Positions 2,600-64,000 of a stretch of DNA of 64,000 nucleotides are shown here, in pieces (position 1 is the stretch's first letter; each line of letters opens with the position of its first letter). The DNA is from Bryobacterales bacterium. Lineage in GTDB: Bacteria; Acidobacteriota; Terriglobia; Bryobacterales; Bryobacteraceae. The stretch is taken from positions 8,299 through 72,298 of the forward strand of contig CAVXEM010000004.1 in assembly GCA_963760575.1 (NCBI GenBank), in the 5' to 3' direction. Made by a program: the position numbers and the translations under genes. The notes under the pieces were generated by a model. The model was given only the letters and a program-made list of their open reading frames with translations. It ran no database searches and was not told the origin of the DNA.

Positions 2600-3407
2600 G
2601 TGACTATGAAAACCCTGGTGATGGTCTTCGCTAGCGCGGTGACGCTGTGCGCGCAGTGGCCGCCGCATCCGAGTGCGGGAGTTCCGAAGACGGCTGCGGG
2701 CAAACCGAATTTGAACGCGCTGGCGCCGCGGACGGCCGATGGCAAGCCCGACCTCTCGGGAGTCTGGGAGAACTTTCGGGAGGCGGCGGGGCCTCCGACG
2801 ACTGGTCTCGGGCCGACGCTGGGGTCGAATCAGTTTTGGGACATCGGTTATGGAATGAAGGATGGCTTGCCGTACCAGCCGTGGGCCAAGGATCTGCTCG
2901 CGAAGCGCATAGGAGAAAACAGCAAGGACAATCCGGACGCGCACTGTCTGCCGATGGGTCTGATGCAACTGCACACGCACCCGCAACCCCGGAAAATCAT
3001 TCAGACTCCCGGCGTAATCGTCATTTTGTATGAAGGGAACAGCGGCATCCGGCAAATCTTCACTGACGGGCGCGCACTGCCGTCTCGCGATGCGCAGCCG
3101 TGGTGGTATGGCTATTCCGTAGGCAAGTGGGATGGCGATACTTTGGTGGTCGAGACCACCGGTTTCCGCGACGACGGGTGGCTGGATGTGAATGGGAGTC
3201 CGCTGACCGAGGCCGGGAAGATGACGGAGCGCTTCCGGCGGGTGAACTACGGGAATCTGGAAATCGAGGTCACGGTGGATGATCCCAAGGCGTACACCAA
3301 ACCGTGGACGGCGAAGATGACGCAGCGCGATCATGCTCGACACCGAGTTGATTGAGTTCGTGTGCAATGAGAACGAGAAGTCTGTGACGCACCTGGTGGG
3401 CAAGTGA
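2600..3407 (+). CDS. Exported hypothetical protein, 'GDTLVVET' secreted family. The C-terminus is frameshifted: the track ORF ends at 3355 and homology continues in the +1 frame to 3407.
   Basis: Signal peptide MTMKTLVMVFASAVTLCAQ. Family motifs ...DAHCLPMG...YGYSVGKWDGDTLVVETTGF...VTVDDPKAYTKPWT.... After ~3326 the next frame reads AIMLDTELIEFVCNENEKSVTHLVGK*, which matches the E..C tail of the paralogs at 57815, 58576 and 60123. Confidence 0.7.
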
Positions 3408-9114: not shown

Positions 9115-10600
9115 GAAGCACTGGGGCTATGCGGAATTCCGCGCGCGCCAGGAAGCCATCGTCGAGGCTATCCTGGGCGGGCGCGACGTCGCCGTGGTGA
9201 TGCCCACGGGCGGCGGGAAATCGCTGTGCTACCAACTCCCCGCTGTCGTTCTGCAGCGGACCGCGGTGGTAGTGAGCCCGCTGATCGCGCTGATGCAAGA
9301 CCAAGCCGCGAGCATGCGCGAAATCGGCGTGACCGCGGCGTTTCTGAACAGCACTCTTGACTACGAAGGTGCGCGCGATGTCCGGCGGCAGGCGGAATCA
9401 GGAGCGCTGCAATTGCTGTACGTGTCGCCAGAGCGCATCGTGCAGGAGAACATGTTGGCGTGGCTGAAGCAGGTACCGCTCGCCTTCTTCGCCATCGATG
9501 AAGCCCACTGCATTTCGGAATGGGGTCACGAGTTCCGCCCGGAATACCGCCAACTGGGAATTCTGCGCGAGCGTTTTCCGGAGGTGCCCATTGCGGCCTT
9601 CACTGCCAGCGCGACACGCATCGTCCGCCACGATATCCTGGCGCAACTGGGGCTGCGCGATCCGGCGCTTTCGGTCAGCAGCTTCTACCGCCCCAATCTG
9701 CGTTACATCGTGCACGAGTGCGCGCCGCGGCAGCAGGATGCCATGCTGGACGCCGCGCTCGATTGGTATCAGGAAGGCAATGTAATCCTGTACGCGCCCA
9801 CTATTAAAGCGGTGGAATCGATCGCAGAGCGCCTCGGGAAACAAGGCGTTCCCATCGTGCCTTATCACGGCAAAATGGACACGGCTCTGCGCCAGAGGAA
9901 TCAGGAACTGTGGATGTCCGGCGAGAAGCGCGTCCTAGTAGGCACGCTGGCGTTCGGCTTGGGAATCAATCAGCCGGCCACGCGCGCAGTGATTCACCTG
10001 GCGCTGCCGAAATCCATCGAACAGTTCTATCAGGAGGCCGGCCGCGCCGGACGAGACGGCGAACCGGCCGATTGCGTACTGCTGTGGCAGAAGCGCGACA
10101 TCGGCTTGCTCACGCATTTCGTACAGCAGTTGCAGGACCCTGACGAACGCGAGCGCGCCTGGCAGCGCTATCACACGCTGCGCCGCTTCGTCGAACAGCC
10201 GCGCTGCCGCCATCGCCAGATATGCCTGCACTTCGGAGAAACGCCGAAGTGGGAAACCTGCGCAGCCTGCGATGTGTGCGGGGTCGAGCTCGAGTGGACC
10301 ACCAAGAAATACACGCCAGCTCCGCGCGTGAAGGCCGCGAAAGCGGCAGCGGCGGTGGCACTCCCCACGGCCGTCGATGCAGGCTCGGACTCGCTCCGTG
10401 AGAAGCTGCGCGCGTGGCGGCGCGATCTGGCCAAGCAGCAGTCTGTGCCCGCGTATGTCATCCTGCACGACGCCACGCTCGATGCGCTGTGCCGTCAGCG
10501 TCCGCGCGATCTGGGTGAACTACTTGAAGTCCCCGGCATCGGCGAGCGCAAAGCCGAGCGCTTCGGCGCAAAACTTCTGGAGCTGATTGCGGGCGCTTAG
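9089..10600 (+). CDS. recQ: RecQ-family ATP-dependent DNA helicase (short form: helicase core, Zn-binding Cys cluster, C-terminal HRDC)
   Basis: ...FRARQEAIVEAIL.GRDVAVVMPTGGGKSLCYQLPA...AIDEAHCISEWGHEFRPEY...TATA...CRH..CLHFGE...CAACDVC.... The HRDC-like tail reads ...VPAYVILHDATLDALC...LLEVPGIGERKAERFG. Confidence 0.9.
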   Translation: MSDLRALLKKHWGYAEFRARQEAIVEAILGGRDVAVVMPTGGGKSLCYQLPAVVLQRTAVVVSPLIALMQDQAASMREIGVTAAFLNSTLDYEGARDVRRQAESGALQLLYVSPERIVQENMLAWLKQVPLAFFAIDEAHCISEWGHEFRPEYRQLGILRERFPEVPIAAFTASATRIVRHDILAQLGLRDPALSVSSFYRPNLRYIVHECAPRQQDAMLDAALDWYQEGNVILYAPTIKAVESIAERLGKQGVPIVPYHGKMDTALRQRNQELWMSGEKRVLVGTLAFGLGINQPATRAVIHLALPKSIEQFYQEAGRAGRDGEPADCVLLWQKRDIGLLTHFVQQLQDPDERERAWQRYHTLRRFVEQPRCRHRQICLHFGETPKWETCAACDVCGVELEWTTKKYTPAPRVKAAKAAAAVALPTAVDAGSDSLREKLRAWRRDLAKQQSVPAYVILHDATLDALCRQRPRDLGELLEVPGIGERKAERFGAKLLELIAGA

Positions 10601-10634: not shown

Positions 10635-12224
10635 GTGAAAGGCGCCTTGCTTTTTTTCGTCGCCCTCCGCTTGGCGGTTTGCGATCCGCAATCCGCGCCC
10701 GAGCAGCAGCTTTGTACGATCAAAGGCACGGTCACCGACGCGCTCACCCACCAAGGATTGCGCAAGGCCTACTTGAGGCTGGGCGAGTATCCGGCGGTTA
10801 CAGATGACCGCGGCGCGTTTACCATCGACAACATTAAGCCGGGAACATATGTTCTAATGGCGGAACACCAGGGTTATATCGATGGAGAATTCGGCGAGGC
10901 GGATGGCGCGGCCCTAGCAATTAGATTGTCCCCTGGGCAGACTCTGACGGATATCAACGTCAAGCTGACGCCGCAAGCCGTGATCTCCGGTCGCGTGGTA
11001 GATGAAGACGGCGAAGTTTGGACTCACGCGCAAGTGAACCTGCTTCGCTCGAAACGGACCCGCGGCCAGTCCAAGATTGAGGGCTTCGCGGGCGACAGCG
11101 TAAACGATCAAGGGGAATTTCGCATTGGCCAAATTCCGCCGGGAAAGTATTACCTATCCGCGGAACCGGATGCGGGTTGGGAATTTCGACACCAAGCGCT
11201 CTCCCCACAACGACAGCCTACCTGGTATCCCAGTTCCCTCGACCTTGAGGGCGCAACCCCTATCATCGTGAGCGGTGGGAACCAAGTCACTGGTTTGGAA
11301 ATCCGCATCCGCCGCGGCAGCATGCACCGGATACGCGGAACGCTGGTGGGCGCCGAGAATATTCCCGCTCCCGATGGGCCTGAACCATACGCCCGGCGAA
11401 GGGTTTCGGCGCAGTCGACATCAGGCGCGGCTGCTAACGGAAGGGGCGCCATTATTCACCCCGACGGCTCTTTTGAGATCTTAGCAGTTCAGTCTGGATC
11501 CTATGAGATTCGCGTGAGCCAGGGATTTCCTCCCATCAATCTTGGAATGGCAAAGGTTCAAGTAGACGACCGTGACGTGGAAGATGTGTCCATTCAGCTC
11601 ATCCCGCCGCAGCGGCTAAACGGAATGATCAAGATCGCGGAGGAGGGTTCGAAAAAACCTGCGGGGCTTCAAGTGGAGCTCGACCCCGTTCATCCCGGTC
11701 GAAGCTCTTATATATTTTCCCGCGCAGATGGCAGTTTCGAGTTCCCGCCCATTGCGGCCGAGCGATACCGGGTGAGCGTCGGAGGAATCGGACACTATCT
11801 GAAAGAGATTCGCTATGGAGACGCGGTGTCGACCGACGGCACCGTCACTGTCACCGGTGCGGGGGGAAGTCTGCTGTTGGTTCTAAGTCCCCGGGTCGCC
11901 CATTTGACGGGACAGATGAGCACCGCCGCGGTTGGTGCGCCCCGGATCGTGCTGATACCGGCGGGCGCCGGGGACGAAGTTAGACAGGCCACGCTCGATC
12001 AGACCGGCGCGTTCTCCTTCGGCGATCTGCGTCCGGGAACCTACAAGCTGTACGCGTTTGAAGGCGCGCCTGACGGCGTGTGGGAAGACCCCGGCTTCAT
12101 GAAAGAATTTTCCGCAGCCGGAGTAGAGATTCACTTGGACGAGGGCGAAGCGAAGAACGCGGATGTCCCTCTAATCCCCAAGTCCGATCTCGCGCCTGTG
12201 TTGAAAAAGCTCGGCCTCGATTGA
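10635..12224 (+). CDS. Exported carboxypeptidase-regulatory-like (CarboxypepD_reg) multi-domain protein
   Basis: The GTG at 10635 is preceded by AAGAGG, and the signal peptide reads VKGALLFFVALRLAV. Repeats of the type GTVTDA..G..L....V.L...TDDRGAFTIDNIKPGTYVL recur. The track ORF begins at 10587 and overlaps the recQ stop. Confidence 0.6.
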   Translation: MKGALLFFVALRLAVCDPQSAPEQQLCTIKGTVTDALTHQGLRKAYLRLGEYPAVTDDRGAFTIDNIKPGTYVLMAEHQGYIDGEFGEADGAALAIRLSPGQTLTDINVKLTPQAVISGRVVDEDGEVWTHAQVNLLRSKRTRGQSKIEGFAGDSVNDQGEFRIGQIPPGKYYLSAEPDAGWEFRHQALSPQRQPTWYPSSLDLEGATPIIVSGGNQVTGLEIRIRRGSMHRIRGTLVGAENIPAPDGPEPYARRRVSAQSTSGAAANGRGAIIHPDGSFEILAVQSGSYEIRVSQGFPPINLGMAKVQVDDRDVEDVSIQLIPPQRLNGMIKIAEEGSKKPAGLQVELDPVHPGRSSYIFSRADGSFEFPPIAAERYRVSVGGIGHYLKEIRYGDAVSTDGTVTVTGAGGSLLLVLSPRVAHLTGQMSTAAVGAPRIVLIPAGAGDEVRQATLDQTGAFSFGDLRPGTYKLYAFEGAPDGVWEDPGFMKEFSAAGVEIHLDEGEAKNADVPLIPKSDLAPVLKKLGLD

Positions 12225-54494: not shown

Positions 54495-55231
54495 AGTCAA
54501 TATTATTACTCGGACTCGCGGCCATCGCGCTCTGCGCGCAGAACGTGCAGGTGTATTCGGAGCTCGCGCAAATCAATGACGCGGGCGAGGTGCTAGCGCC
54601 CGAAAACCCTCGCGAAATTCTATCGCCGGCCGTCGCCCGCAACGCTTTCAGCTCGTTTCAAATTGCGATCCAGGTTCCTAAAGGCAAAAAGTTCCTGGTA
54701 TACATGGGCCAGAATCCGGATGACGCCGCGAAAGTCACGCTCTACCGTCGCGCTGCCGCCAAACCGGGGCTGGAGCGCGTGGAGCTGCCGTATTCCGGAG
54801 AATCGTCGCAGGTCCTGTGGATGGATCTGTGGATAGATGCGAACGCCCCCGTGCGCCGCGTGAAAATCGAGCCTCAAGTAGGCATCGATGGCGATTGGGT
54901 GACCTATCCGATGGAAGTGCGCGTGATGGAGCCGGTGGTTCCCAAATCCGTGGCTTTCACACCGGGAGTCGCAAGCCCCTTCGAAGTCATGCGCGCATTC
55001 TTGTGCGGTACGAAAATACGGCCGTCGGCGGGACGTGTCCCGGTCGGCGCGGATCTCCTCTTCCGCAACGCCCAACAGGACGTGGCGCTGGCGGCAGCGG
55101 GCTCCCTGCCGCTTCGCGACGAACTGAAGAAGGCTATGGGCGGCTGCAACGCCAACCCGCCCGCCGATCCCGAATTCTATCTCCGCTTACGCGACTATTT
55201 ATTCACGCCCCTATGGAAAAAGGTGCGCTGA
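54491..55231 (+). CDS. Exported hypothetical protein
   Basis: ATGA overlap with grpB. Signal peptide [17 protein letters not shown]. No known motifs. Confidence 0.55.
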
Positions 55232-55268
55232 AGCGGCCCGCCGCGCTAAACTTGGTATTCGCCCCCGC

Positions 55269-55358
55269 GGAGAGATGGCCGAGTGGTTGAAGGCGCACGC
55301 TTGGAAAGCGTGTTTAGGGGAAACTCTAACGAGGGTTCGAATCCCTCTCTCTCCGCCA
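55269..55358 (+). tRNA. tRNA-Ser (anticodon GGA), CCA encoded
   Basis: Acceptor GGAGAGA/TCTCTCC; anticodon arm CACGC-TTGGAAA-GCGTG; long variable arm; T arm GAGGG-TTCGAAT-CCCTC; then G-CCA. Length 90 nt. Confidence 0.9.
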
Positions 55359-55606
55359 TTTATTCAATAACTTAGATCGCAACTATCGCGCGCAAGCTGA
55401 AGCGGTACTACGGTTACTACGACACACTTGGCTGTGAAGAAACCTGGGGTTTTAGAACGTATCGCGGGGTCACAATAATCCGGCTCCGATCGGCGCAGCG
55501 CCCCAGGTCGCGACCGCGAACGCCTGGCGCGTCCTCAAGCGCCTCCTCTATCTCATCCTGGTCGCGTCGGAGCGCGATGGATCCTTCGAGGCCAGCCGAC
55601 GGATTG

Positions 55607-56488
55607 TCATCCGTTCCTGGATCCCGAGGATCCATGAACGTTGCGGAGTTGAGACGCAGATTCTTTCTGAGAGTTTTTCTCGGTCGCCATTGCTCGTTCG
55701 ATCTCGCGGGCTCCCGCAATCGTTAGAGGAAGAATGCGCCCCACGAGCGTCTCATCCGCGCGGTAGGCTGGTAGCACAAAACTCAAACTGCCGAGCAGAG
55801 ATCCGTCGGCACCGACAATCGCAGCGGCTATTCCGACCCTGCCCCGATCGATCTCACCCCTGGTAACGCATGCGCCCGCACGACGAATGGCGCTGAGCGC
55901 TTTCCGAAACGTTTCCCAGCTATTTCCCAGACCCGCGGCTTTGATTTCCTTCGAGTGTCTTACGAAAAGATCCTTAAGAAATCGGGAGGGCAAGTTTGCC
56001 AGGACGACTTTGGATGTCGCACCACGGAACAATGGCATGGGCTTACCCCGCTCATAGCTCACGAGAACTTGAGGGCCCGAACCCATCACCTGATGAACAC
56101 AGATCACTTTGCCGCGGAAAGCCCGACAAAGAAGGATCGCAGAGCCTTCAGGAAAATACCGAATCAGATCCTCCATGACTGGCCTGCCAGCGATCAAGAG
56201 GGGGTCACAAAGCCGAATCTGCCGATCTAGCTCAATGACCGCCGGACCCAGAGTGTAACCCGCCCTCGGTCCGGGACTGATGAGACCGACGCGGGAAAGA
56301 CTCTTGAAGTACCTGTAGACCGTCGGCGCGGAAGCGTGAAGTCGGGTGGCTGCCTGCTCGACTGTCCAGGCGGGTTGATCCTCCGAGAACAGTTGCAACA
56401 CTGCAAGAAGTCGATCGCCGCTGCTCTGCGGCGCTTGATCGGAACTGGATCTCATTTGAGTGGATATAGGTTGAAATTGTAGGGGCAT
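55607..56488 (-). CDS. IclR-family transcriptional regulator
   Basis: N-terminal wHTH ...LLAVLQLFSEDQPAWTVEQAATRLHASAPTVYRYFKSLSRVGLI..., followed by an IclR effector-domain-like region ...PLFRGATSKVVLA...GIAAAIVGADGSLLGSLSF.... The C-terminal tail is unusually long. Confidence 0.85.
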   Translation of the reverse strand: MPLQFQPISTQMRSSSDQAPQSSGDRLLAVLQLFSEDQPAWTVEQAATRLHASAPTVYRYFKSLSRVGLISPGPRAGYTLGPAVIELDRQIRLCDPLLIAGRPVMEDLIRYFPEGSAILLCRAFRGKVICVHQVMGSGPQVLVSYERGKPMPLFRGATSKVVLANLPSRFLKDLFVRHSKEIKAAGLGNSWETFRKALSAIRRAGACVTRGEIDRGRVGIAAAIVGADGSLLGSLSFVLPAYRADETLVGRILPLTIAGAREIERAMATEKNSQKESASQLRNVHGSSGSRNG

Positions 56489-56581
56489 CGTGATTTGGTT
56501 CGGAGCATAAAAGCAACCGCCGGCATGCTGCCTCCTTCACGTGCGGAATCAAGCTCCTGCCAAGCTGCAAGATGACACGAG

Positions 56582-56600
56582 TTTCTCATAATACGATAAT
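56582..56600. promoter_or_regulatory. Candidate operator S1 (TTTCTCATA-A-TACGATAAT) in the iclR / SnoaL-like divergent intergenic region
   Basis: Matches the perfect palindrome at 62518-62536 in 15 of 18 arm positions. Confidence 0.4.
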
Positions 56601-56674
56601 ACAGCCAATGTGGTACATTGACCGAAGTTACGGCCTTTCGAAAAGATCATTGAGATTAGATAGAGGAGATCGCT

Positions 56675-57127
56675 ATGAAAATGCCTAGGGTATTTCTTGC
56701 AGTAGCTTTGTGCTGTTTGACAGGTGCGCTAGCGGCTCAGAATCGAGACGTGAAGACGGAAGAAGCCAATAAGAAAATGGTGCTCACGTTCTACCAAGCG
56801 TTTTTCGGGGATCACGATCTCAGCGCGGCAGAAAAGTACCTTGACCCCGGCTACGTTCAGCACAATCCCGGACTGCCGGACGGGCGTGACGCTCTCATCA
56901 ATATGGCGAAAGGGATGTTCGCGAACACGCCCAAGGGCAAGCCGGATATTCGCAGAGTTGCCGCCGACGGCGACTTAGTTTGGCTCCATGTTCGCGGTCA
57001 ATTCGGGCCGGGACCTGCAAGCTCTGTCGTGGACATCTTCCGCGTCAAGAACGGCAAGATCGTCGAGCACTGGGACACTATTCAATCGATTCCCGAAAAG
57101 TCGGCGAACCCGCATCCGATGTTTTAG
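56675..57127 (+). CDS. Exported SnoaL/NTF2-like protein
   Basis: An AGAGGAG lies upstream. Signal peptide MKMPRVFLAVALCCLTGALAAQ. ...NKKMVLTFYQAFF......KYLDPGYVQHNP...G...........V.....DGDLVWLH.......VDIFRVKNGKIVEHWD. Confidence 0.75.
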   Translation: MKMPRVFLAVALCCLTGALAAQNRDVKTEEANKKMVLTFYQAFFGDHDLSAAEKYLDPGYVQHNPGLPDGRDALINMAKGMFANTPKGKPDIRRVAADGDLVWLHVRGQFGPGPASSVVDIFRVKNGKIVEHWDTIQSIPEKSANPHPMF

Positions 57128-57236
57128 CCGGCCTTGCGAGTCTCTCTAAAGATTCTGAGCCAATTTGCGATGCCTAACCACTGCCTTGCGTCCCAACCTC
57201 GCAACGCAATTCCCATAGAAGCCCGATCGGCTAGTG

Positions 57237-57255
57237 ATTTGCAGAGTATGATAAT
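57237..57255. promoter_or_regulatory. Candidate operator S2 (ATTTGCAGA-G-TATGATAAT), ~135 nt upstream of the DUF6152-like gene
   Basis: The right arm is identical to the 62518 palindrome (9/9). The left arm matches 6/9. Confidence 0.35.
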
Positions 57256-57389
57256 TTTGCTCATGCCTCAATGGCCCGCAACCTGGTGGCGATTTTTAGA
57301 AATCGCTGTTCGGCTTGAAAAGCACCGGTCTCCAGACTACGACCACTGGCCTCTTCCGGTGACAGTATACCGACCCTAGGAGAAGCTCA

Positions 57390-57809
57390 ATGCGTTATTG
57401 CAAATTGTTTTTGCCCATTTTGAGCACGTCGCTTTTGCTCGCTCCGCTGGCTGTGGCGCATCATTCCGATGCGGCTTACGACAAGGCCATCACCAAGACG
57501 ACTTCCGGCACCTTGAAGGAGTTCGACTGGAACGCGCCGCATGCTGGCGTATTGGTCGAGTACAAGAATGAGAAAGGAGAGACGGCCGAGATCTACGCCA
57601 CGACCTTTGCGCCGCAGCAGCTCGCGCGCCAAGGCTTTGCCCCGAAGGATTTCAAACCGGGACAGAAAGTGGAGCTGGTGTGGCACCCGGCGCGCAGCGG
57701 AGCTGGCGGCGGACTTTTGGTCAGCTTAAAGCTGGAAGACGGCCGCGTCGTGAGTGCCGGCGGGCCACCGGGCCAGCAAACGGCAACACCTCCGGCCCCC
57801 AAACCCTAA
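57390..57809 (+). CDS. Small exported protein (DUF6152-like, from memory). The mature N-terminus is predicted to be His-His-Ser.
   Basis: An AGGAGAAG lies upstream. The signal peptide is ...LLLAPLAVA|HHSDAAYD. Also ...GTLKEFDWNAPHAGVLVEY...GQKVELVWHPARSG.... Confidence 0.6.
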   Translation: MRYCKLFLPILSTSLLLAPLAVAHHSDAAYDKAITKTTSGTLKEFDWNAPHAGVLVEYKNEKGETAEIYATTFAPQQLARQGFAPKDFKPGQKVELVWHPARSGAGGGLLVSLKLEDGRVVSAGGPPGQQTATPPAPKP

Positions 57810-57814
57810 TCGTT

Positions 57815-58543
57815 GTGCGAGGCGAGCCATTGAATATTGCAAACCCGAAAAAGCCCACAGAGTTGGGGATTGCGGCGCTTATGTTCCTGGGAGTGTTGCC
57901 CCTCTCGGCTCAGGAGCGACCGAACCTGGAGGGCGTTTGGAAACTCGCTCAGCCGCAAGCCGCGCTCTTGCCGAGCGATAACCGGCCCGTGCCTTTTACC
58001 GAGAAGGGCCGGGCGCAATATGAGCAGAACAAGCTCGCGGCCGAGAAGGGCGACTATGCTTTCGACGCGACGATGTCGCGCTGTTCGTCGCCCGGCCTGC
58101 CGCGCCTGATGCTGACGCCCGGCCGTTTCCGAATCTTTCAGCGCCCGCTAGTAATCGGCATGGCGTTCGAGTGGAACCGCTTGTTCCGGCAGATCGACCT
58201 GCGAAGCGGTCCGCATGAGCGTCCCCTGATTGACACGATGAAAGGCGTGACCTATGGAACGTGGGAAGGCGGAACGCTCGTGGCGCGCTCCTATGGATTC
58301 TCCGAGAAAACGCTGCTTGACCAGCGGATTCCCCACAGTGACCAATTGGAGCTGGTCGAGCGTATTCGGCTGCGGGACCGGAGTACGTTGGAGGATCGTA
58401 TTACCATTACTGATCCCGAAATGTTTACTCGCCCGTGGGAAGCGATGCTCTCCTACAAGCGTCAACCTGACGACGCTTTCCCGTTTCCGGAAGACGTTTG
58501 CTTGGATCGAAAGAACGCGGGTCAGCCGCCGCTCCCGCGGTGA
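57815..58543 (+). CDS. Exported protein, 'GDTLVVET' secreted family, copy X1
   Basis: The GTG lies 5 nt after the upstream stop. Signal ...GIAALMFLGVLPLSAQ. ...LEGVWK...CSSPGLPR...GVTYGTWEGGTLVARSYGF...ITITDPEMFTRPWEA...EDVCLD. Confidence 0.6.
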   Translation: MRGEPLNIANPKKPTELGIAALMFLGVLPLSAQERPNLEGVWKLAQPQAALLPSDNRPVPFTEKGRAQYEQNKLAAEKGDYAFDATMSRCSSPGLPRLMLTPGRFRIFQRPLVIGMAFEWNRLFRQIDLRSGPHERPLIDTMKGVTYGTWEGGTLVARSYGFSEKTLLDQRIPHSDQLELVERIRLRDRSTLEDRITITDPEMFTRPWEAMLSYKRQPDDAFPFPEDVCLDRKNAGQPPLPR

Positions 58544-58575
58544 TCGCCACTGGTGTGAAGAGGAGATTAGCCAAG

Positions 58576-59412
58576 ATGATACGGTACGGCCGATGCGGAA
58601 AGCTGTTAGTAGCGAGCTTGGTATTCGTCGGAATGGCGGTGGCGCAGGCGCAGCCTCCATCGGGACCGACCCGCGATAGTGCACCCCCAGGCGGCGCGCC
58701 GCCGCCGGCGCTGCCGCCTCTGCCGGCCGACGCACCCAAACCTTCGCCTGATCCCAGAAACCTGGAGGGCACTTGGTTTCACGATCAGCGCTTGGTATTT
58801 CGGGTTGAGACCGACCTGTACGGCAACCGCCTGCCCTTTACAGCCAAGGGGCAGCGCATCCGCGATCGCCGCGTTAAATCGACCTATGAAGATGGCTTGC
58901 CTTATGCCAACGCCTCGGCGGAATGCAAGCCTCCCGGGCAGACCTGGCAGCTCGATTTGAACTTCCCGTTTCAGATCTATCAATCGAGCAAAGAGATTGT
59001 GTTTGTGTTCCAGGAATATCACGGCATGTGGAATATCCGCATGAATCAGCCGCATCGGAATTCGGGCCCCCGCGAATACTTCGGAGACTCCGTGGGCCGA
59101 TGGGACGGAGACACGCTGGTGGTCGATACCGTCCGCTACAAACAAGGGCTGTGGATCGACGTGGACGGCACACCGACGTCCGCCGAGGCGCACCTGATAC
59201 AGAGGATACGCCGTATCGACTACGGCGGTCCCAAGCTCGAAATTCTCACCACGGTCGATGATCCGGAAATGTATACGACGCCTTGGTCGATCGTCCGCAC
59301 CTTCGCATGGCGCCCGGACAAGGTGATCTTCGAGGAATACAACTGCGAATGGCAGGTGGGAACGCCTGGCGCATTGACGCGCTATGGCCTGGTTCCGGAA
59401 CCCGAGGAGTGA
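58576..59412 (+). CDS. Exported protein, 'GDTLVVET' secreted family, copy X2
   Basis: The ATG is preceded by GAGGAG. Signal ...LLVASLVFVGMAVAQAQ. ...LEGTWFH...CKPPGQ...GDSVGRWDGDTLVVDTVRY...TVDDPEMYTTPWS...EEYNCEW. Confidence 0.65.
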   Translation: MIRYGRCGKLLVASLVFVGMAVAQAQPPSGPTRDSAPPGGAPPPALPPLPADAPKPSPDPRNLEGTWFHDQRLVFRVETDLYGNRLPFTAKGQRIRDRRVKSTYEDGLPYANASAECKPPGQTWQLDLNFPFQIYQSSKEIVFVFQEYHGMWNIRMNQPHRNSGPREYFGDSVGRWDGDTLVVDTVRYKQGLWIDVDGTPTSAEAHLIQRIRRIDYGGPKLEILTTVDDPEMYTTPWSIVRTFAWRPDKVIFEEYNCEWQVGTPGALTRYGLVPEPEE

Positions 59413-59415
59413 CTC

Positions 59416-59919
59416 ATGAAGATGCAACGCAACTGGCACTTGAGTTTGACGGCGGTGGTGTTGTTCGGTGCCGCTCCAGCCCCGGCCCAAGCGCCCCAAG
59501 AAGCAGCTAACAAAAAATTAGTGCTGGATTTTTACAATGAACTCTACAAGGGGGAAGCCGACGGCAATCTGAAGGATCGGATTGCAGGCATAGCGGAGAA
59601 GTATATGCTCCCCGATTATATTCAGCACAACCCAGCGTTTGGCGGTTCCGGTGGTGGGCGTGAAGCGTTCATTCGCGCGATGCAACAACAGCCGGCGCGG
59701 CCGCCAAACCCAAACTTTAAACCTCCGGAAACCGTTGCGGTCATGGCGGAAGGCGACCGCGTGATGCTATTCACCAAGCGGGAGGTCCCGGCTGGCAGAG
59801 ATGGTCAAGTGGCGTCTGTATACATCTTCAACATGTTTCGTATAAAGGACGGCAAGTTTGCAGAGCACTGGGACGCGGGAGCCGGACCGCCGGGCGGTGG
59901 CACCCGCGAGTCCCGCTAA
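59416..59919 (+). CDS. Exported SnoaL/NTF2-like protein (paralog of 56675)
   Basis: The ATG lies 3 nt after the X2 stop. A signal peptide is present. ...NKKLVLDFYNELY......KYMLPDYIQHNP...FNMFRIKDGKFAEHWD. Confidence 0.7.
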   Translation: MKMQRNWHLSLTAVVLFGAAPAPAQAPQEAANKKLVLDFYNELYKGEADGNLKDRIAGIAEKYMLPDYIQHNPAFGGSGGGREAFIRAMQQQPARPPNPNFKPPETVAVMAEGDRVMLFTKREVPAGRDGQVASVYIFNMFRIKDGKFAEHWDAGAGPPGGGTRESR

Positions 59920-60122
59920 ATTTGAAGAGGACACTTAGATGGCCGTAGAAAATGGCCGGTCGATGACCTTTGGATTGAGCTAGCCAGGCAATCCGAACCA
60001 GGCGCTTACGTAAACACAAAAACCGCCCCAACCGTGGATGCAAAAACGCGTGCTGCTGGTCCAGACAACACCTACCTAAGAACCTCTATCGGTCCCGTAG
60101 CGCGAGCAGGGCATGCAGGGTA

Positions 60123-60332
60123 GAGGAGCAATTCCACCGCGTCGACCGGGACACCCTGGAACTGTCGATGACGATTGATGATCCTAAGGTGTACACGAGG
60201 CCTTGGGTAGCTCTCGATCAGTTGCGTTTCAAGTTGCAACCACCGAATACGGATATCCGCGAAATGCTATGCTCACCCTCAGAGATTGCCGCCTATAACC
60301 GGAAACACGCCGCTCCCGGTGCGGGAAAATAA
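60123..60332 (+). pseudogene. 3' remnant of a 'GDTLVVET'-family gene
   Basis: Only the family tail is present: EEQFHRVDRDTLELSMTIDDPKVYTRPWVALDQLRFKLQPPNTDIREMLCSPSE...*. The upstream frame translates to non-protein-like sequence, and there is no N-terminal part or signal peptide. Confidence 0.55.
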
Positions 60333-60342
60333 TCGAGGGAAT

Positions 60343-60783
60343 ATGAGTTTGTTGAAGAACGCCTACAACTGGAGACCCTACTTACTGAGTCTGCTGCGTA
60401 TTGGAGTCGGGTTGGTGTTTTTCCAGCATGGTGCCGAGAAACTCTGGGGATTCGCTGGCGCACGAACGGTTGGCATGCATTTCACTTTAATTGGACTTGC
60501 CGGACCGCTCGAAGTCGGAGGTGGGCTATTACTGGTGCTTGGACTGTTCACGCGCACAGTTTCGTTCATTCTCTGCGGAGAAATGGCAGTAGCCTATTTC
60601 ACGTTGTGGGCGCCTCGTGGATTCTTTCCCATTAACAATGGCGGCGAAGAAGCGGTGATCAATTGTTTCCTATTTCTTTGGCTTGTCACAGCCGGACCGG
60701 GCCCCTGGAGCCTGGACGATTTATTTCACGGAAATTACAAGAAGACGAAGGCCGATCTCAAGCCGACGGGCACGCGGATTTGA
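60343..60783 (+). CDS. DoxX-family membrane protein
   Basis: ...LLSLLRIGVGLVFFQHGAEKLWGF...GPLEVGGGLLLVLGLFTR...NGGEEAVINCFLFLWL...GPGPWSLD. Confidence 0.8.
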   Translation: MSLLKNAYNWRPYLLSLLRIGVGLVFFQHGAEKLWGFAGARTVGMHFTLIGLAGPLEVGGGLLLVLGLFTRTVSFILCGEMAVAYFTLWAPRGFFPINNGGEEAVINCFLFLWLVTAGPGPWSLDDLFHGNYKKTKADLKPTGTRI

Positions 60784-60813
60784 TGCCAGCCGCGAGCAAG
60801 CGCGGAAAGGAGT

Positions 60814-61266
60814 ATGCACATGACTGAGGCAATTAGTTCTTGGGAAGGGTACGCACGATCGGTGCTCCGAATCATACTTGCCTTTGTGTTTTCGCTGCAT
60901 GGATACCGCCACCTCTTCGACGCGTTCCCGCGACTGGGCGGCCGTCGGGGCGCGGTACCGATGGCGCTGGACGCATTGCCGTCCGTGGTTGGCGTCTTGG
61001 AAATCGGCGGCGGACTGTTATTACTAATCGGACTATTCGCCCGATCCACGGCCCTAGTCCTATGTTGCGAATTGCTGGTCGCCTATTTTTTTGTGGCGGC
61101 GCCCCGAGCGATATGGCCGATCCGCAACGGTGGAAACGAAGTGATCCTCTATTTCTTGGCCTTTCTATACTTGGCTGTGAACGGGCCGGGTACGTGGAGT
61201 TTGGATCATTCTCTAGAAGAGCCTAGGGCGGAATTGGCTGGGCCGAGCGTTCGTGGAAAGACATGA
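60814..61266 (+). CDS. DoxX-family membrane protein (paralog)
   Basis: ...VLRIILAFVFSLHGYRHLF...VGVLEIGGGLLLLIGLFAR...NGGNEVILYFLAFLYL...GPGTWSLD. The second ATG (60820) has better spacing from the AAGGAG. Confidence 0.75.
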   Translation: MHMTEAISSWEGYARSVLRIILAFVFSLHGYRHLFDAFPRLGGRRGAVPMALDALPSVVGVLEIGGGLLLLIGLFARSTALVLCCELLVAYFFVAAPRAIWPIRNGGNEVILYFLAFLYLAVNGPGTWSLDHSLEEPRAELAGPSVRGKT

Positions 61267-61273
61267 GGATCAC

Positions 61274-62419
61274 ATGGTAACTGCACGGAAAGTATTATCG
61301 ATATCGAAACGGGTTCCGGGGCTCATGCTGGCTCTCGCAGTGGGGGTCGGGGCACTTTTGACAGCCGCACCCGGGGCGGCGCAATTGGCTGGCCAGCCTA
61401 GAACGGCTGAGCAAGTTTACAAGAACATCAAAGTGCTTCAGGGAAGCCCCGCCGACAGCTTCAATCAAGGGATGCATCTCATTTCGGGCGCGCTCGGAGT
61501 TAACTGCGAGTATTGCCACGTGGAAAGGGACTTCGTCAGCGACGACGTGAAGAAGAAAGACGTGGCACGCGGGATGATTACCATGACTGCCGAATTGAAT
61601 CAGCGGTCCTTCCAAGGCAAACCAGTGATTACTTGCTATACCTGTCACCAGGGCAACGCCATCCCGGTGAATATGCCGGTGCTTCCGCGACCCCGCTATC
61701 CTGAAGTAAGGAAGGCCGAGCCCGGCTTGCCTTCTGCTTCGCAAATTCTTTCTAACTACGTCGCTGCATTGGGGGGCGAGCAGAATCTGAAGAAGATCAA
61801 AACCCGGCTCATTACAGCGCAACAGGATGTTCCGACCGGACCTGGCGGAGTTAACCCCGCGCCGGCGCAGGTCGAGATCTATCAGAAAGCACCGAATCTT
61901 TTGCTGCGGGTGGCAAAAACCAATCAGGCAACGCTACTGAGTGGCTTCGACGGAACCACGGCGTGGGGGCAAGACCCCAGGGGACGGGTGGTCCCAGCGG
62001 TTGAATTGGAGGCGATTCGCGAGCGCAGAGGCGCTGATCTTTACGAGCCGCTGAATATCGCTAAGGAATACTCGGACTTAAAAGTTGAGGGTACCGAAAA
62101 GGTTGGTGACCTGGAAGCTTACGTTCTCGTCGGCCGGCCTTCCGAAGGTATTCCCGAGCGGTTTTACTTCGATACGAAATCCGGCCTTCTAGTCCGGAGA
62201 CTCACGGTCGTGCCAACAGCGGCCGGCGACAGCCCCTTTCAAGTGGATTACGAGGACTACAGAAATGCAGGAAGCGGGGTGAAGTACCCGTTTCGCATCC
62301 ATATGGAGCCCGCGGGATCCAGAACCGAACTAATAACGCACTCGACGATCCAGGTTCAGCAAATCCAAGAGAATATCGCGATAGACAACGCTAAGTTTGT
62401 AAAACCCGAATCAAAGTAG
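61274..62419 (+). CDS. Exported di-heme c-type cytochrome (reaction-centre-cytochrome-c-like N-terminal module plus a ~230-aa beta-rich C-terminal domain)
   Basis: A GAGGA lies 5 nt upstream. A signal peptide is present. ...VYKNIKVLQG.PA..F...M..IS.ALGVNCEYCH.......D..K.....R.M..M....N........ITCYTCHQG... contains two CxxCH sites. Confidence 0.7.
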   Translation: MVTARKVLSISKRVPGLMLALAVGVGALLTAAPGAAQLAGQPRTAEQVYKNIKVLQGSPADSFNQGMHLISGALGVNCEYCHVERDFVSDDVKKKDVARGMITMTAELNQRSFQGKPVITCYTCHQGNAIPVNMPVLPRPRYPEVRKAEPGLPSASQILSNYVAALGGEQNLKKIKTRLITAQQDVPTGPGGVNPAPAQVEIYQKAPNLLLRVAKTNQATLLSGFDGTTAWGQDPRGRVVPAVELEAIRERRGADLYEPLNIAKEYSDLKVEGTEKVGDLEAYVLVGRPSEGIPERFYFDTKSGLLVRRLTVVPTAAGDSPFQVDYEDYRNAGSGVKYPFRIHMEPAGSRTELITHSTIQVQQIQENIAIDNAKFVKPESK

Positions 62420-62476
62420 GTTCCCCACGCACTTCCCGCAGCAAAGGAGTTTGTACGGTGTCCCATCGGGATTCGT

Positions 62477-62495
62477 TTTGTCATAATACGACTGT
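62477..62495. promoter_or_regulatory. Candidate operator S3 (TTTGTCATA-A-TACGACTGT), effectively a half-site
   Basis: Left arm matches 7/9 and right arm 5/9 versus the perfect palindrome. It shares TCATAATACGA with S1. Confidence 0.3.
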
Positions 62496-62517
62496 TCTCT
62501 TGCACACTGAGTCGCCG

Positions 62518-62536
62518 ATTATCATAGTATGATAAT
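62518..62536. promoter_or_regulatory. Candidate operator S4: perfect palindrome ATTATCATA-G-TATGATAAT, ~140 nt upstream of the 62675 gene
   Basis: Perfect 9-nt inverted arms around a single central base, in a 255-nt AT-rich intergenic region. Confidence 0.45.
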
Positions 62537-62674
62537 TTGATCAGGTTAGCATGGAGCCGACGCATCTTATCAAGAAGAATTTCTCAAACGAATGCTAACG
62601 CTCACGGGCTGGATTGGAACGGCAGGAACCAGCTTAATATAGTAGCGATTGCAGTTGAAGAGTAAGAGGACCTG

Positions 62675-63571
62675 ATGATCAAAAATGCCCGAAAATTTCT
62701 GACCTACTCCGGGTTGTTCTCGTTGGCGTGGCTGTGGGCGGCCCTGCCGGCTTTAGCGCAGATCGACATTTCCGGCGAATGGATGCCGCGGATCCATGAA
62801 GACCAGCCGCATCGCGTTCCGGGGCCGGAGTTGGGCGATTACACGGGACTTCCGATTAATGCCGCAGCCCGCCAGAAGGCCACTAGTTGGGATGCGTCGA
62901 TTTTGTCGCTGCCGGAACGCATGGCGCAGCCGCATCCCGCTCAGTACTTCATGCGCGGGCCGGGGCCGCAAATGCGCATCAGCAAAGTTATCGATGCAGT
63001 TACCCAGACGTTAATCGCATACACGCTCGAGGGCGTATTCGGGCGCGATGACCGCGTGATCTGGATGGATGGACGCCCGCATCCGTCAGAGTATGCCGAG
63101 CACACCTGGGATGGCTTCTCCACCGGCGCGGTTCACGGGAATCAACTTATCATCACCACCACGCATATGAAGTACGGTGTGATTCAGCGCAACGGCGTGC
63201 CCGCCAGCCCTCACGCGACCATGACAGAACAGTTCATCCGGCACGGGGATTACTTGACGCTGGTGTCGATCATAGATGATCCCGTGTACCTCGAAGAACC
63301 GTTCATCCGGACTTCCACGTGGCTGCGAAGCTCGAACCTGACGCTCGACCAGCGCTTCATTTTCGAGGTAGTGGATGAAATTGCCACACGTGCACCGGGA
63401 TCCGTGCCGAGCTATCCGCTGGGAACTAAACAAGACGGCTACGCGCTGAAGCATGGGCTGCCGTTCGAAGCCACGCAAGGCGGCAAGGCCACGACATACC
63501 CGGAGTACGAAATGGTTATCCGCAAGATGCTGGCCAATATGCCGAAGACGCCGATCCAGGCAGCCAAGTGA
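62675..63571 (+). CDS. Exported hypothetical protein, a distant relative of the 'GDTLVVET' family
   Basis: An AAGAGGA lies upstream. Signal ...LAWLWAALPALAQ. ...ISGEW...HTWDGFSTGAVHGNQLIITTTHM...IIDDPVYLEEPF... shows the same order of elements as the family, but diverged. Confidence 0.5.
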   Translation: MIKNARKFLTYSGLFSLAWLWAALPALAQIDISGEWMPRIHEDQPHRVPGPELGDYTGLPINAAARQKATSWDASILSLPERMAQPHPAQYFMRGPGPQMRISKVIDAVTQTLIAYTLEGVFGRDDRVIWMDGRPHPSEYAEHTWDGFSTGAVHGNQLIITTTHMKYGVIQRNGVPASPHATMTEQFIRHGDYLTLVSIIDDPVYLEEPFIRTSTWLRSSNLTLDQRFIFEVVDEIATRAPGSVPSYPLGTKQDGYALKHGLPFEATQGGKATTYPEYEMVIRKMLANMPKTPIQAAK

Positions 63572-63572
63572 G

Positions 63573-64000
63573 ATGGCGATGAAATTCAGGTTAGCAGTTC
63601 CCTTTCTCGTCCCGATGCTGAGCGTGTGTGCGCAACAAGCGCCGATTATCACCGCGCTCACGGCCGAAAGGCCCGAGATCCTGAAGGTGGAAGGGATTGA
63701 GATTCTTCACGTTCAGAAGAACATGTACCTTCTCGCCGGGGGCGGCGCGAACGTCGCGGTCCAGATCGGCGAAGGCGGTGTCCTGGTGGTTGACGCGGGC
63801 AACGAGGGTCAGGGGGAGAAGATCTTCGCGGCGATTCGCCACCTGACGCACAAGCCCTTGCGCTACCTGGTGAACACTAGTCCGGACGCCGATAAAGTCG
63901 GCGGCAATGCCGGCTTGGTGCAGGCGGCCGGGGGGATCACGGGAATCATCGCCGGCGCGGCGGGGCGCCCCGCCAACGCCGGTATCGAAACGATCGCGCA
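63573..64000 (+). CDS. Exported MBL-fold-like protein with a degenerate metal motif; 3' end cut by window edge
   Basis: The ATG lies 1 nt after the upstream stop, and the frame is open to nt 64000. Signal MAMKFRLAVPFLVPMLSVCAQ. ...VQKNMYLLAGGGANVAVQIGEGGVLVVDAG......I..AI..LT.KPLRYLVNTSPDADKVGGN has SPDADK where HxHxDH is expected. Confidence 0.55.
   Translation, partial: MAMKFRLAVPFLVPMLSVCAQQAPIITALTAERPEILKVEGIEILHVQKNMYLLAGGGANVAVQIGEGGVLVVDAGNEGQGEKIFAAIRHLTHKPLRYLVNTSPDADKVGGNAGLVQAAGGITGIIAGAAGRPANAGIETIA

Follow-up and report, generated by a model that had tools for sequence, protein, structure and literature searches.

Genes and sites at the locus

We analysed a stretch of 64,000 nucleotides from a Bryobacterales bacterium (contig CAVXEM010000004.1, positions 8,299 to 72,298 of the forward strand), called the window from here on. 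Towards its end, a palindromic motif of 19 bp recurs in intergenic DNA around a gene for an IclR-family regulator. From the comparisons presented below, this motif is very probably the operator of that adjacent regulator. The regulator gene, the sites, and a promoter that coincides with one of them are the following.

55607-56455, minus strand: IclR-family regulator gene, 282 amino acids from the ATG at 56455; alternative ATG at 56488
56582-56600, plus strand: site 1, TTTCTCATAATACGATAAT, between the divergent IclR and SnoaL genes
57237-57255, plus strand: site 2, ATTTGCAGAGTATGATAAT, 135 nt 5' of the DUF6152 operon
62518-62536, strand-symmetric: site 3, ATTATCATAGTATGATAAT, 139 nt 5' of the unkC / MBL-like operon
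62477-62495, plus strand: site 4, TTTGTCATAATACGACTGT, candidate auxiliary site, uncertain
56572-56600, plus strand: sigma-70-like promoter of the first SnoaL gene, ATGACA-17-GATAAT, 10 of 12 consensus positions, with a predicted start site

The genes around the sites, with their presumed control, are these.

56675-57127, plus strand: SnoaL-like exported protein (Pfam SnoaL, SnoaL_2), start codon 75 nt 3' of site 1; presumed target of site 1
57390-59919, plus strand: operon DUF6152-unkA-unkB-SnoaL (Pfam DUF6152, SnoaL_2); presumed target of site 2
57390-57809, plus strand: the DUF6152 gene of this operon, from a Pfam family of unknown function
57830-59412, plus strand: unkA and unkB, exported, no family match
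60343-61266: two DoxX genes
61253-62419: cytochrome c gene, photosynthetic reaction-centre type
62675-63571, plus strand: unkC, exported, no family match
62675-64000, plus strand: unkC and an MBL-like (metallo-beta-lactamase-fold) gene, which runs past the window end; presumed target of sites 3 and 4

The original prediction, made on the letters of the window, had given the coordinates and sequences of the four sites, and these match the window exactly. Its gene calls hold as well. Site 3 is, as it had claimed, a perfect palindrome, centred on a G. The intergenic placement is also correct. All four sites lie in non-coding DNA, where no open frame across a site exceeds 83 amino acids.

The single consensus proposed there, wTTnTCATA-r-TAyGATAAT, is better split into two forms. 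One, ATTyGCATAwTAyGATAAT, belongs to the promoters of DUF6152 and IclR. The other, ATTATC-N7-GATAAT, belongs to the promoter of the unkC/MBL-like operon and is found beside other members of the regulator clade.

The regulator

The regulator protein is an IclR-family transcription factor. It scores 35.8 bits with the Pfam model HTH_IclR (PF09339, cut-off 22) and 52.2 bits with IclR_C (PF01614, cut-off 24). The best-scoring named subfamily is PcaR/PcaU/PobR (TIGR02431), to which the regulator does not belong: it scores 70 bits where the cut-off is 284.75. The best match among solved structures is 8eju, a Pca regulon regulator (E = 2.8e-11). The clade of the regulator appears uncharacterised. Its presumed recognition helix, PT(A/V)YRYF(K/R), is conserved across the clade, and the present genome has one IclR of this clade only.

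Rarity of the motif in the window and the genome

We scanned the whole assembly (G000, 5.28 Mb in 67 contigs, 59.8% G+C), with mismatch counts to the palindrome that ignore the centre base. Within three mismatches of the palindrome, the genome contains sites 1, 2 and 3 and nothing else. None of 100 shuffles of the window gave a match at this threshold. For the word TAYGATAAT, the window has four occurrences where 0.15 would be expected. Genome-wide, TCATAnTAYGA has five distinct sites, three of them in the present cluster, and ATTATC-N7-GATAAT has a single occurrence, site 3. Chance does not explain sites 1 to 3.

A weight matrix was trained on seven sites from related metagenome loci, none of them from the present genome. 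The original prediction had proposed a genome-wide matrix scan, and with this matrix of foreign sites the first three ranks of the genome go to site 1 (31.2 bits), site 2 (25.0 bits) and site 3 (24.7 bits on both strands), all of them non-coding. The next match has 18.7 bits. The next-best matches all fall in stop-to-stop frames of at least 286 amino acids, several of them at the 5' end of the frame. By eye, the proteins of these genes resemble membrane or glycosyltransferase-like proteins, an SMP-30-like protein, an AAA ATPase and a TonB-like protein. We rejected the next-best matches (18.7 bits or less) as a wider regulon. They are at or inside unrelated genes. The prediction had named, as the result that would speak against it, a similar frequency across the genome and inside genes. 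The scan shows no such thing, since what it returned outside the cluster is weaker and lies in long frames. Within the window there is no further site, including upstream of the DoxX and cytochrome genes, which agrees with the earlier statement that the motif is seen nowhere else there.

The prediction had also called the other three sites close variants of the palindrome. This is right for sites 1 and 2, with at most three mismatches, but not for site 4, which is weak (6 mismatches). It scores 8.2 bits, a background level, in an earlier four-site version of the ortholog matrix. Its 11-nt core TCATAATACGA is identical to the core of site 1, and its centre is 41 bp from that of site 3. No equivalent tandem is visible in the related loci. 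Site 4 would be at best auxiliary, and its core and its position are the only features that point to it. In the IclR family, tandem sites are often two helical turns apart, less often three or four, and lie on the same face of the helix (PMC8222616).

Conservation in related loci

Close relatives of the regulator, above 35% identity, were absent from 41 related genomes and from 400 genomes of the phylum. In the contigs of species-representative genomes, the best homologues were from Burkholderiales (42% identical), and they are without the motif. A large protein collection gave 677 regulator homologues at E <= 1e-20, and DNA was fetched around twelve of them. A further locus, L059, came from a metagenome pattern scan (loci are given here by L numbers). 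The exact 19-mer ATTYGCATANTAYGATAAT was sought in metagenome contigs and found at at least 120 loci. Among the matches listed, nearly all are chance matches in AT-rich samples, and only L059 carries the cluster. The scan is therefore unusable as an enrichment test.

Six loci (L005, L006, L007, L059, L130 and L131) encode an IclR protein 68-74% identical to that of the window. They have in common a neighbourhood of IclR, glyoxalase, CytoC_RC cytochrome, DUF6152, unkA/B/C-like and MBL-fold genes. The operon DUF6152-unkA-unkB-SnoaL is present in L006, L007 and L059, 74-83% identical to that of the window. The motif is found in all six, as ATTyGCATAwTAyGATAAT, upstream of the DUF6152 operon or of IclR. 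The closest ortholog (L132/L133, IclR 85% identical) has TTTCTCAAAATATGATAAC, which equals site 1 at 16 of 19 positions within unrelated flanks. Equivalent promoters with the motif are thus present in eight loci, where IclR identity ranges from 68 to 85%.

When the DUF6152 upstream regions of the window, L006, L007 and L059 are aligned, the motif stands out as a conserved block between diverged flanks, and site 2 aligns there. Between the copies of the motif, the flanks are likewise not conserved. Homologous MBL/unkC operons in L005, L006 and L059 have ATTATC-N7-GATAAT upstream, with a centre that varies and both outer halves kept. Inverted outer halves kept around a variable centre are the signature of a dimeric binder, and site 3 of the window agrees with this arrangement. 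In L005-L007, an ATTATC-N7-GATAAT site precedes the unkC homologues, which adjoin Lactamase_B genes.

L006 and L059 also contain a half-match, ATTAGGACAACCCGATAAT (12.5 bits), at 10889-10907 and 10190-10208, respectively. Identical in these two loci, which are closely related, it follows the IclR stop codon and precedes the glyoxalase gene. It may be a weak internal site.

Association of the motif with the regulator clade

The motif was then sought in unrelated neighbourhoods beside IclR genes 59-67% identical to that of the window. The palindrome ATTATC-N7-GATAAT lies less than 200 bp from IclR in L134, L136, L008 and L129, with 0, 1, 1 and 2 mismatches, respectively, over the 12 outer positions. 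No other match at two mismatches or fewer was found in the approximately 96 kb of these wider-clade loci. The palindrome stands beside these IclR genes in unrelated contexts, which links it with the regulator rather than with its targets. Across all the palindrome-bearing loci, IclR is the only gene in common.

An unseeded count of 8-mers in 13 IclR upstream regions gave a similar picture. The top words are overlapping pieces of GCATAATACGATAAT, present in 5 of the 13 regions. In shuffles, the top count had a mean of 2.98 and was never above 4.

Some neighbourhoods of the wider clade contain LigB, cupin and FAD monooxygenase (FAD_binding_3) genes; in others, DoxX accompanies a molybdopterin enzyme and its ferredoxin subunit. 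In L135 (6828-11182), L136 (6804-11256) and L137-L141, the clade IclR (59-62% identical) is followed by a molybdopterin oxidoreductase of 1012-1022 amino acids. The first domain of this enzyme is AhtL-like, and the protein resembles pyrogallol transhydroxylase. A Fer4_11 subunit comes next, and L135 and L136 also have DoxX. Going by these contexts of the molybdopterin enzyme, the clade may sense phenolics or quinones.

Comparison with IclR operators

For the IclR family, Suvorova and Gelfand (2021) give the main motif class GKTYCRYW3-4RYGRAMC and a subgroup WTTYCRYW3RYGRAAW (PMC8222616). Compared with the group-1 operators of this WTT-11-AAW subgroup (PMC8222616), site 3 matches 14 of the 17 consensus positions when both are aligned by their centres. 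Its core TCATA-G-TATGA corresponds to YCRYW-W-WRYGR, a palindrome of two boxes. The group-1 core YCRY-W3-RYGR is found in sites 1, 3 and 4, which read TCATA-n-TAYGA. Site 2 and the left halves of related sites deviate from it at positions -5 and -2 (GCAGA, GCATA). The placement is also alike: the sites lie upstream of the regulator gene, or between it and a divergent gene, and at promoters nearby. Nevertheless, the present motif differs from group 1 in having A/T at -6/+6, where the consensus has T/A, and in the length of its conserved block, 19 bp (ATTATC...GATAAT). The 14 of 17 matches and the fit of the core give the motif the shape expected of an IclR operator.

The scores of subfamily and structure point to the PcaR/PcaU/PobR regulators of the beta-ketoadipate pathway, and distant members of the clade adjoin genes of aromatic catabolism (LigB, FAD_binding_3, cupins). 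However, their operators have the pattern GTNCG-N5-6-CGNAC, which the present motif does not fit. Regulators of this subfamily are mainly activators. PcaR is an IclR-family activator reported to bind within a promoter (that of pcaI), and its site GTTCGATAATCGCAC contains GATAAT.

Promoter context

The right half-site GATAAT has the form of a -10 hexamer. Site 1 occupies the spacer and the -10 hexamer of ATGACA-17-GATAAT, the promoter listed above. In L005, L006, L007, L059 and L130, TTGACA lies 4 nt 5' of the motif and 17 nt from the terminal GATAAT; L131 has TTGGCA. Sites 2 and 3 have the -10 hexamer only, with a poor -35. Both read TGATAATTT, which could be an extended -10 element. Part of the conservation of the motif is therefore conservation of a promoter, the right half-site being the -10 hexamer.

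The opposite strand carries similar elements. L005, L006, L007, L059 and L130 have a second TTGACA, 16-17 nt from a central TATTAT or CATAAT and directed toward IclR. In those loci, one operator would thus be embedded in two overlapping divergent promoters. At site 1, TATTAT is present on the reverse strand, and the reverse -35 has only 3 of 6 positions. Bidirectional promoters were reportedly described by Warman et al. in 2021, with overlapping symmetric -10 regions and starts 18 bp apart. The loci named above resemble these in that TTGACA and TGTCAA flank the motif. They differ in that the shared region also resembles an operator, and the implied starts would be about 25-35 bp apart.

The sequence at the -10 hexamer may vary with the quality of the -35. 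Sites without a good -35 (57246-57258, 62527-62538, and L007 5060-5078 on the minus strand) have TATGATAATTT, that is TG-n-TAATTT, a candidate extended -10 element. Sites with a good -35 (site 1, L005, L007 at 6735, L130 and L131) have TACGATAAT instead. L006 and L059 have TTGACA and read TATGATAATTC. This may be a compensating pattern.

Elsewhere in the assembly (contig C42 of G000), the identical stretch GGGCTACGATAATAAGTGGAGGAAT is present twice, at 74286-74294 and 79076-79084, 4.8 kb apart. The pair looks like a duplicated promoter and ribosome-binding region, unrelated to the motif save for the -10-like TACGATAAT.

Predicted mechanism and alternative explanations

In the predicted mechanism, a dimer of the regulator would bind the two inverted halves of ATTATC-N7-GATAAT, around the inner core TCATA-n-TAYGA. 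Since GATAAT, the right half, is also the -10 hexamer, the bound regulator would occupy about -25 to -7, spacer and -10 element included, and exclude RNA polymerase. An effector on the IclR C-terminal domain would release it from the operator. Site 1 would control the first SnoaL gene and site 2 the operon DUF6152-unkA-unkB-SnoaL. Site 3 would control the unkC / MBL-like operon, perhaps aided by site 4, four helical turns off. Since site 1 is shared by the upstream regions of the divergent IclR and SnoaL genes and has the reverse TATTAT, the regulator probably controls its own gene too. Such a mechanism is as expected of a local IclR regulator. What is new to annotation is the predicted operator for an uncharacterised IclR clade.

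Given an operator, repression is moderately favoured over activation. An IclR operator that acts in activation, by aiding RNA polymerase at a weak -35, is a variant of the same assignment and on balance a doubtful one. The absence of a good -35 at sites 2 and 3 would suit it, and so would the activator type of the closest named subfamily and the best structure. But the regulator is not a member of that subfamily, and site 1 and most of the related sites lie within near-consensus promoters, which should need no activator. The centre of the sites would be at about -16, where the -10 is covered, which is the typical position of a repressor.

Other explanations do without this regulator. The motif could be only a conserved promoter, a -10 with a preferred spacer or an extended -10, for recognition by RNA polymerase or by an alternative sigma factor. 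At site 1 and in related loci, TTGACA-like hexamers do stand 17 bp away from GATAAT, and TGATAATTT at sites 2 and 3 could act as an extended -10. The next-best matrix matches also tend to lie where unrelated genes begin, which would suit a matrix that in part detects promoters. Nevertheless, spacers are not normally conserved, and here the spacer half ATTyGCATA or ATTATC is kept across loci. The sites of the MBL operons keep both outer inverted halves around a variable centre. Moreover, the motif is confined to one cluster in the genome and follows one IclR clade across contexts. We consider this explanation quite unlikely. Still less probable is the operator of a different regulator, such as a Fur-family metalloregulator. 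The Fur box GATAATGATAATCATTATC is 19 bp long, AT-rich, and composed of the hexamers GATAAT and ATTATC. In length, composition and hexamers the present motif recalls it, and the cluster encodes exported, possibly metal-binding proteins and haem proteins. However, the order of the hexamers is inverted, ATTATC-N7-GATAAT here against GATAAT-N7-ATTATC in the Fur box, and the latter arrangement has no occurrence in the genome. A global metalloregulator would be expected to have many sites, whereas this motif has three in one cluster, always beside an IclR gene, the one gene that all the palindrome loci share.

A chance similarity, or a small repeated element, has a practically negligible probability. 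The motif is AT-rich, and the exact 19-mer is found at many unrelated places in metagenomes. Against this stand the empty result of the 100 shuffles and the three near-matches of the genome, all within 6 kb, with flanks that differ between copies and a motif conserved in related loci. A repeated element of the REP or MITE kind is ruled out by the three strong genome copies with unrelated flanks. Apart from the tRNA, there was no Rfam match in 55000-64000, and the folding of the 141-nt leader downstream of site 3 is not stronger than that of shuffled sequences (z = -0.03). We rejected an RNA element.

Some observations weigh against an operator of the adjacent IclR regulator, or against repression by it. 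L135 has no site, and L137-L142 have only sites with three mismatches. GATAAT is -10-like, and the conservation could be partly derived from the promoter. Several of the related loci are close to each other, which limits their independence as samples. Site 4 is statistically weak, with its six mismatches to the palindrome shared by 144 other genomic positions. The poor -35 at sites 2 and 3 could point to activation instead of repression. All in all, the IclR operator in the regulator's own divergent promoter and in neighbouring promoters, as originally predicted, is supported by every computational test made. The motif is confined to the cluster, forms a conserved block, is present in eight related loci, follows the regulator clade and has the core of the IclR family.

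Extent of the regulon and the cluster

The genome has more than 40 paralogues of DUF6152 and well over 100 of unkA/B/C (tblastn), on many contigs, and members of these families are often adjacent. A further member of the unkA/B/C family lies in the window at 2720-3322. Of all those copies, only the present cluster has the IclR gene and the motif. The idea of a regulon marker is therefore right in that the motif marks this cluster, and does not extend to the more than 40 other DUF6152 copies of the genome. On these scans, the predicted regulon is local. DUF6152 had no mention in the literature searched.

In the gap that separates the second SnoaL gene from the DoxX pair (59920-60335), one frame reads ...IDDPKVYTRPW...CSPSEIAAYN..., the C-terminal signature of unkA/B, below the tblastn threshold. 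The N-terminal part is missing, so this gap probably holds a gene remnant.

The cluster (55400-64000) begins directly after a tRNA-Ser(GGA) gene (55269-55358). Its G+C is 0.53-0.57, compared with about 0.60 upstream. The tRNA edge, the lower G+C and the absence of this IclR from the 41 relatives and the 400 phylum genomes suggest that the cluster is an island gained by horizontal transfer.

Meaning for the cluster and the IclR clade

A wider proposal joins two parts. In it, a double-gate operator, with one IclR dimer switching an overlapping bidirectional promoter, and the clade-wide ATTATC-N7-GATAAT would go together with a shared phenolic or quinone effector. We put it forward as speculative and, on the whole, unlikely. 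If the double gate were true, the right half-site would be one -10 and the centre the opposite -10, and the regulator's own gene and the divergent operon would be switched together. A clade-wide operator would span contexts as different as the molybdopterin enzyme (pyrogallol transhydroxylase-like) with DoxX, ring cleavage, and exported DUF6152/SnoaL/cytochrome c proteins. A shared effector would then point to a function for the unknown exported proteins.

The motif itself gives a testable handle on an exported cluster without assigned function, made up of DUF6152, three unnamed families, SnoaL-like proteins, DoxX and cytochrome c. It would define the co-regulated genes and name a regulator whose effector would reveal the inducing compound, and it would supply a promoter-operator pair for a biosensor. 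For annotation, it would add a predicted binding motif to an IclR clade which soil and peat metagenomes commonly contain and characterised sets lack.

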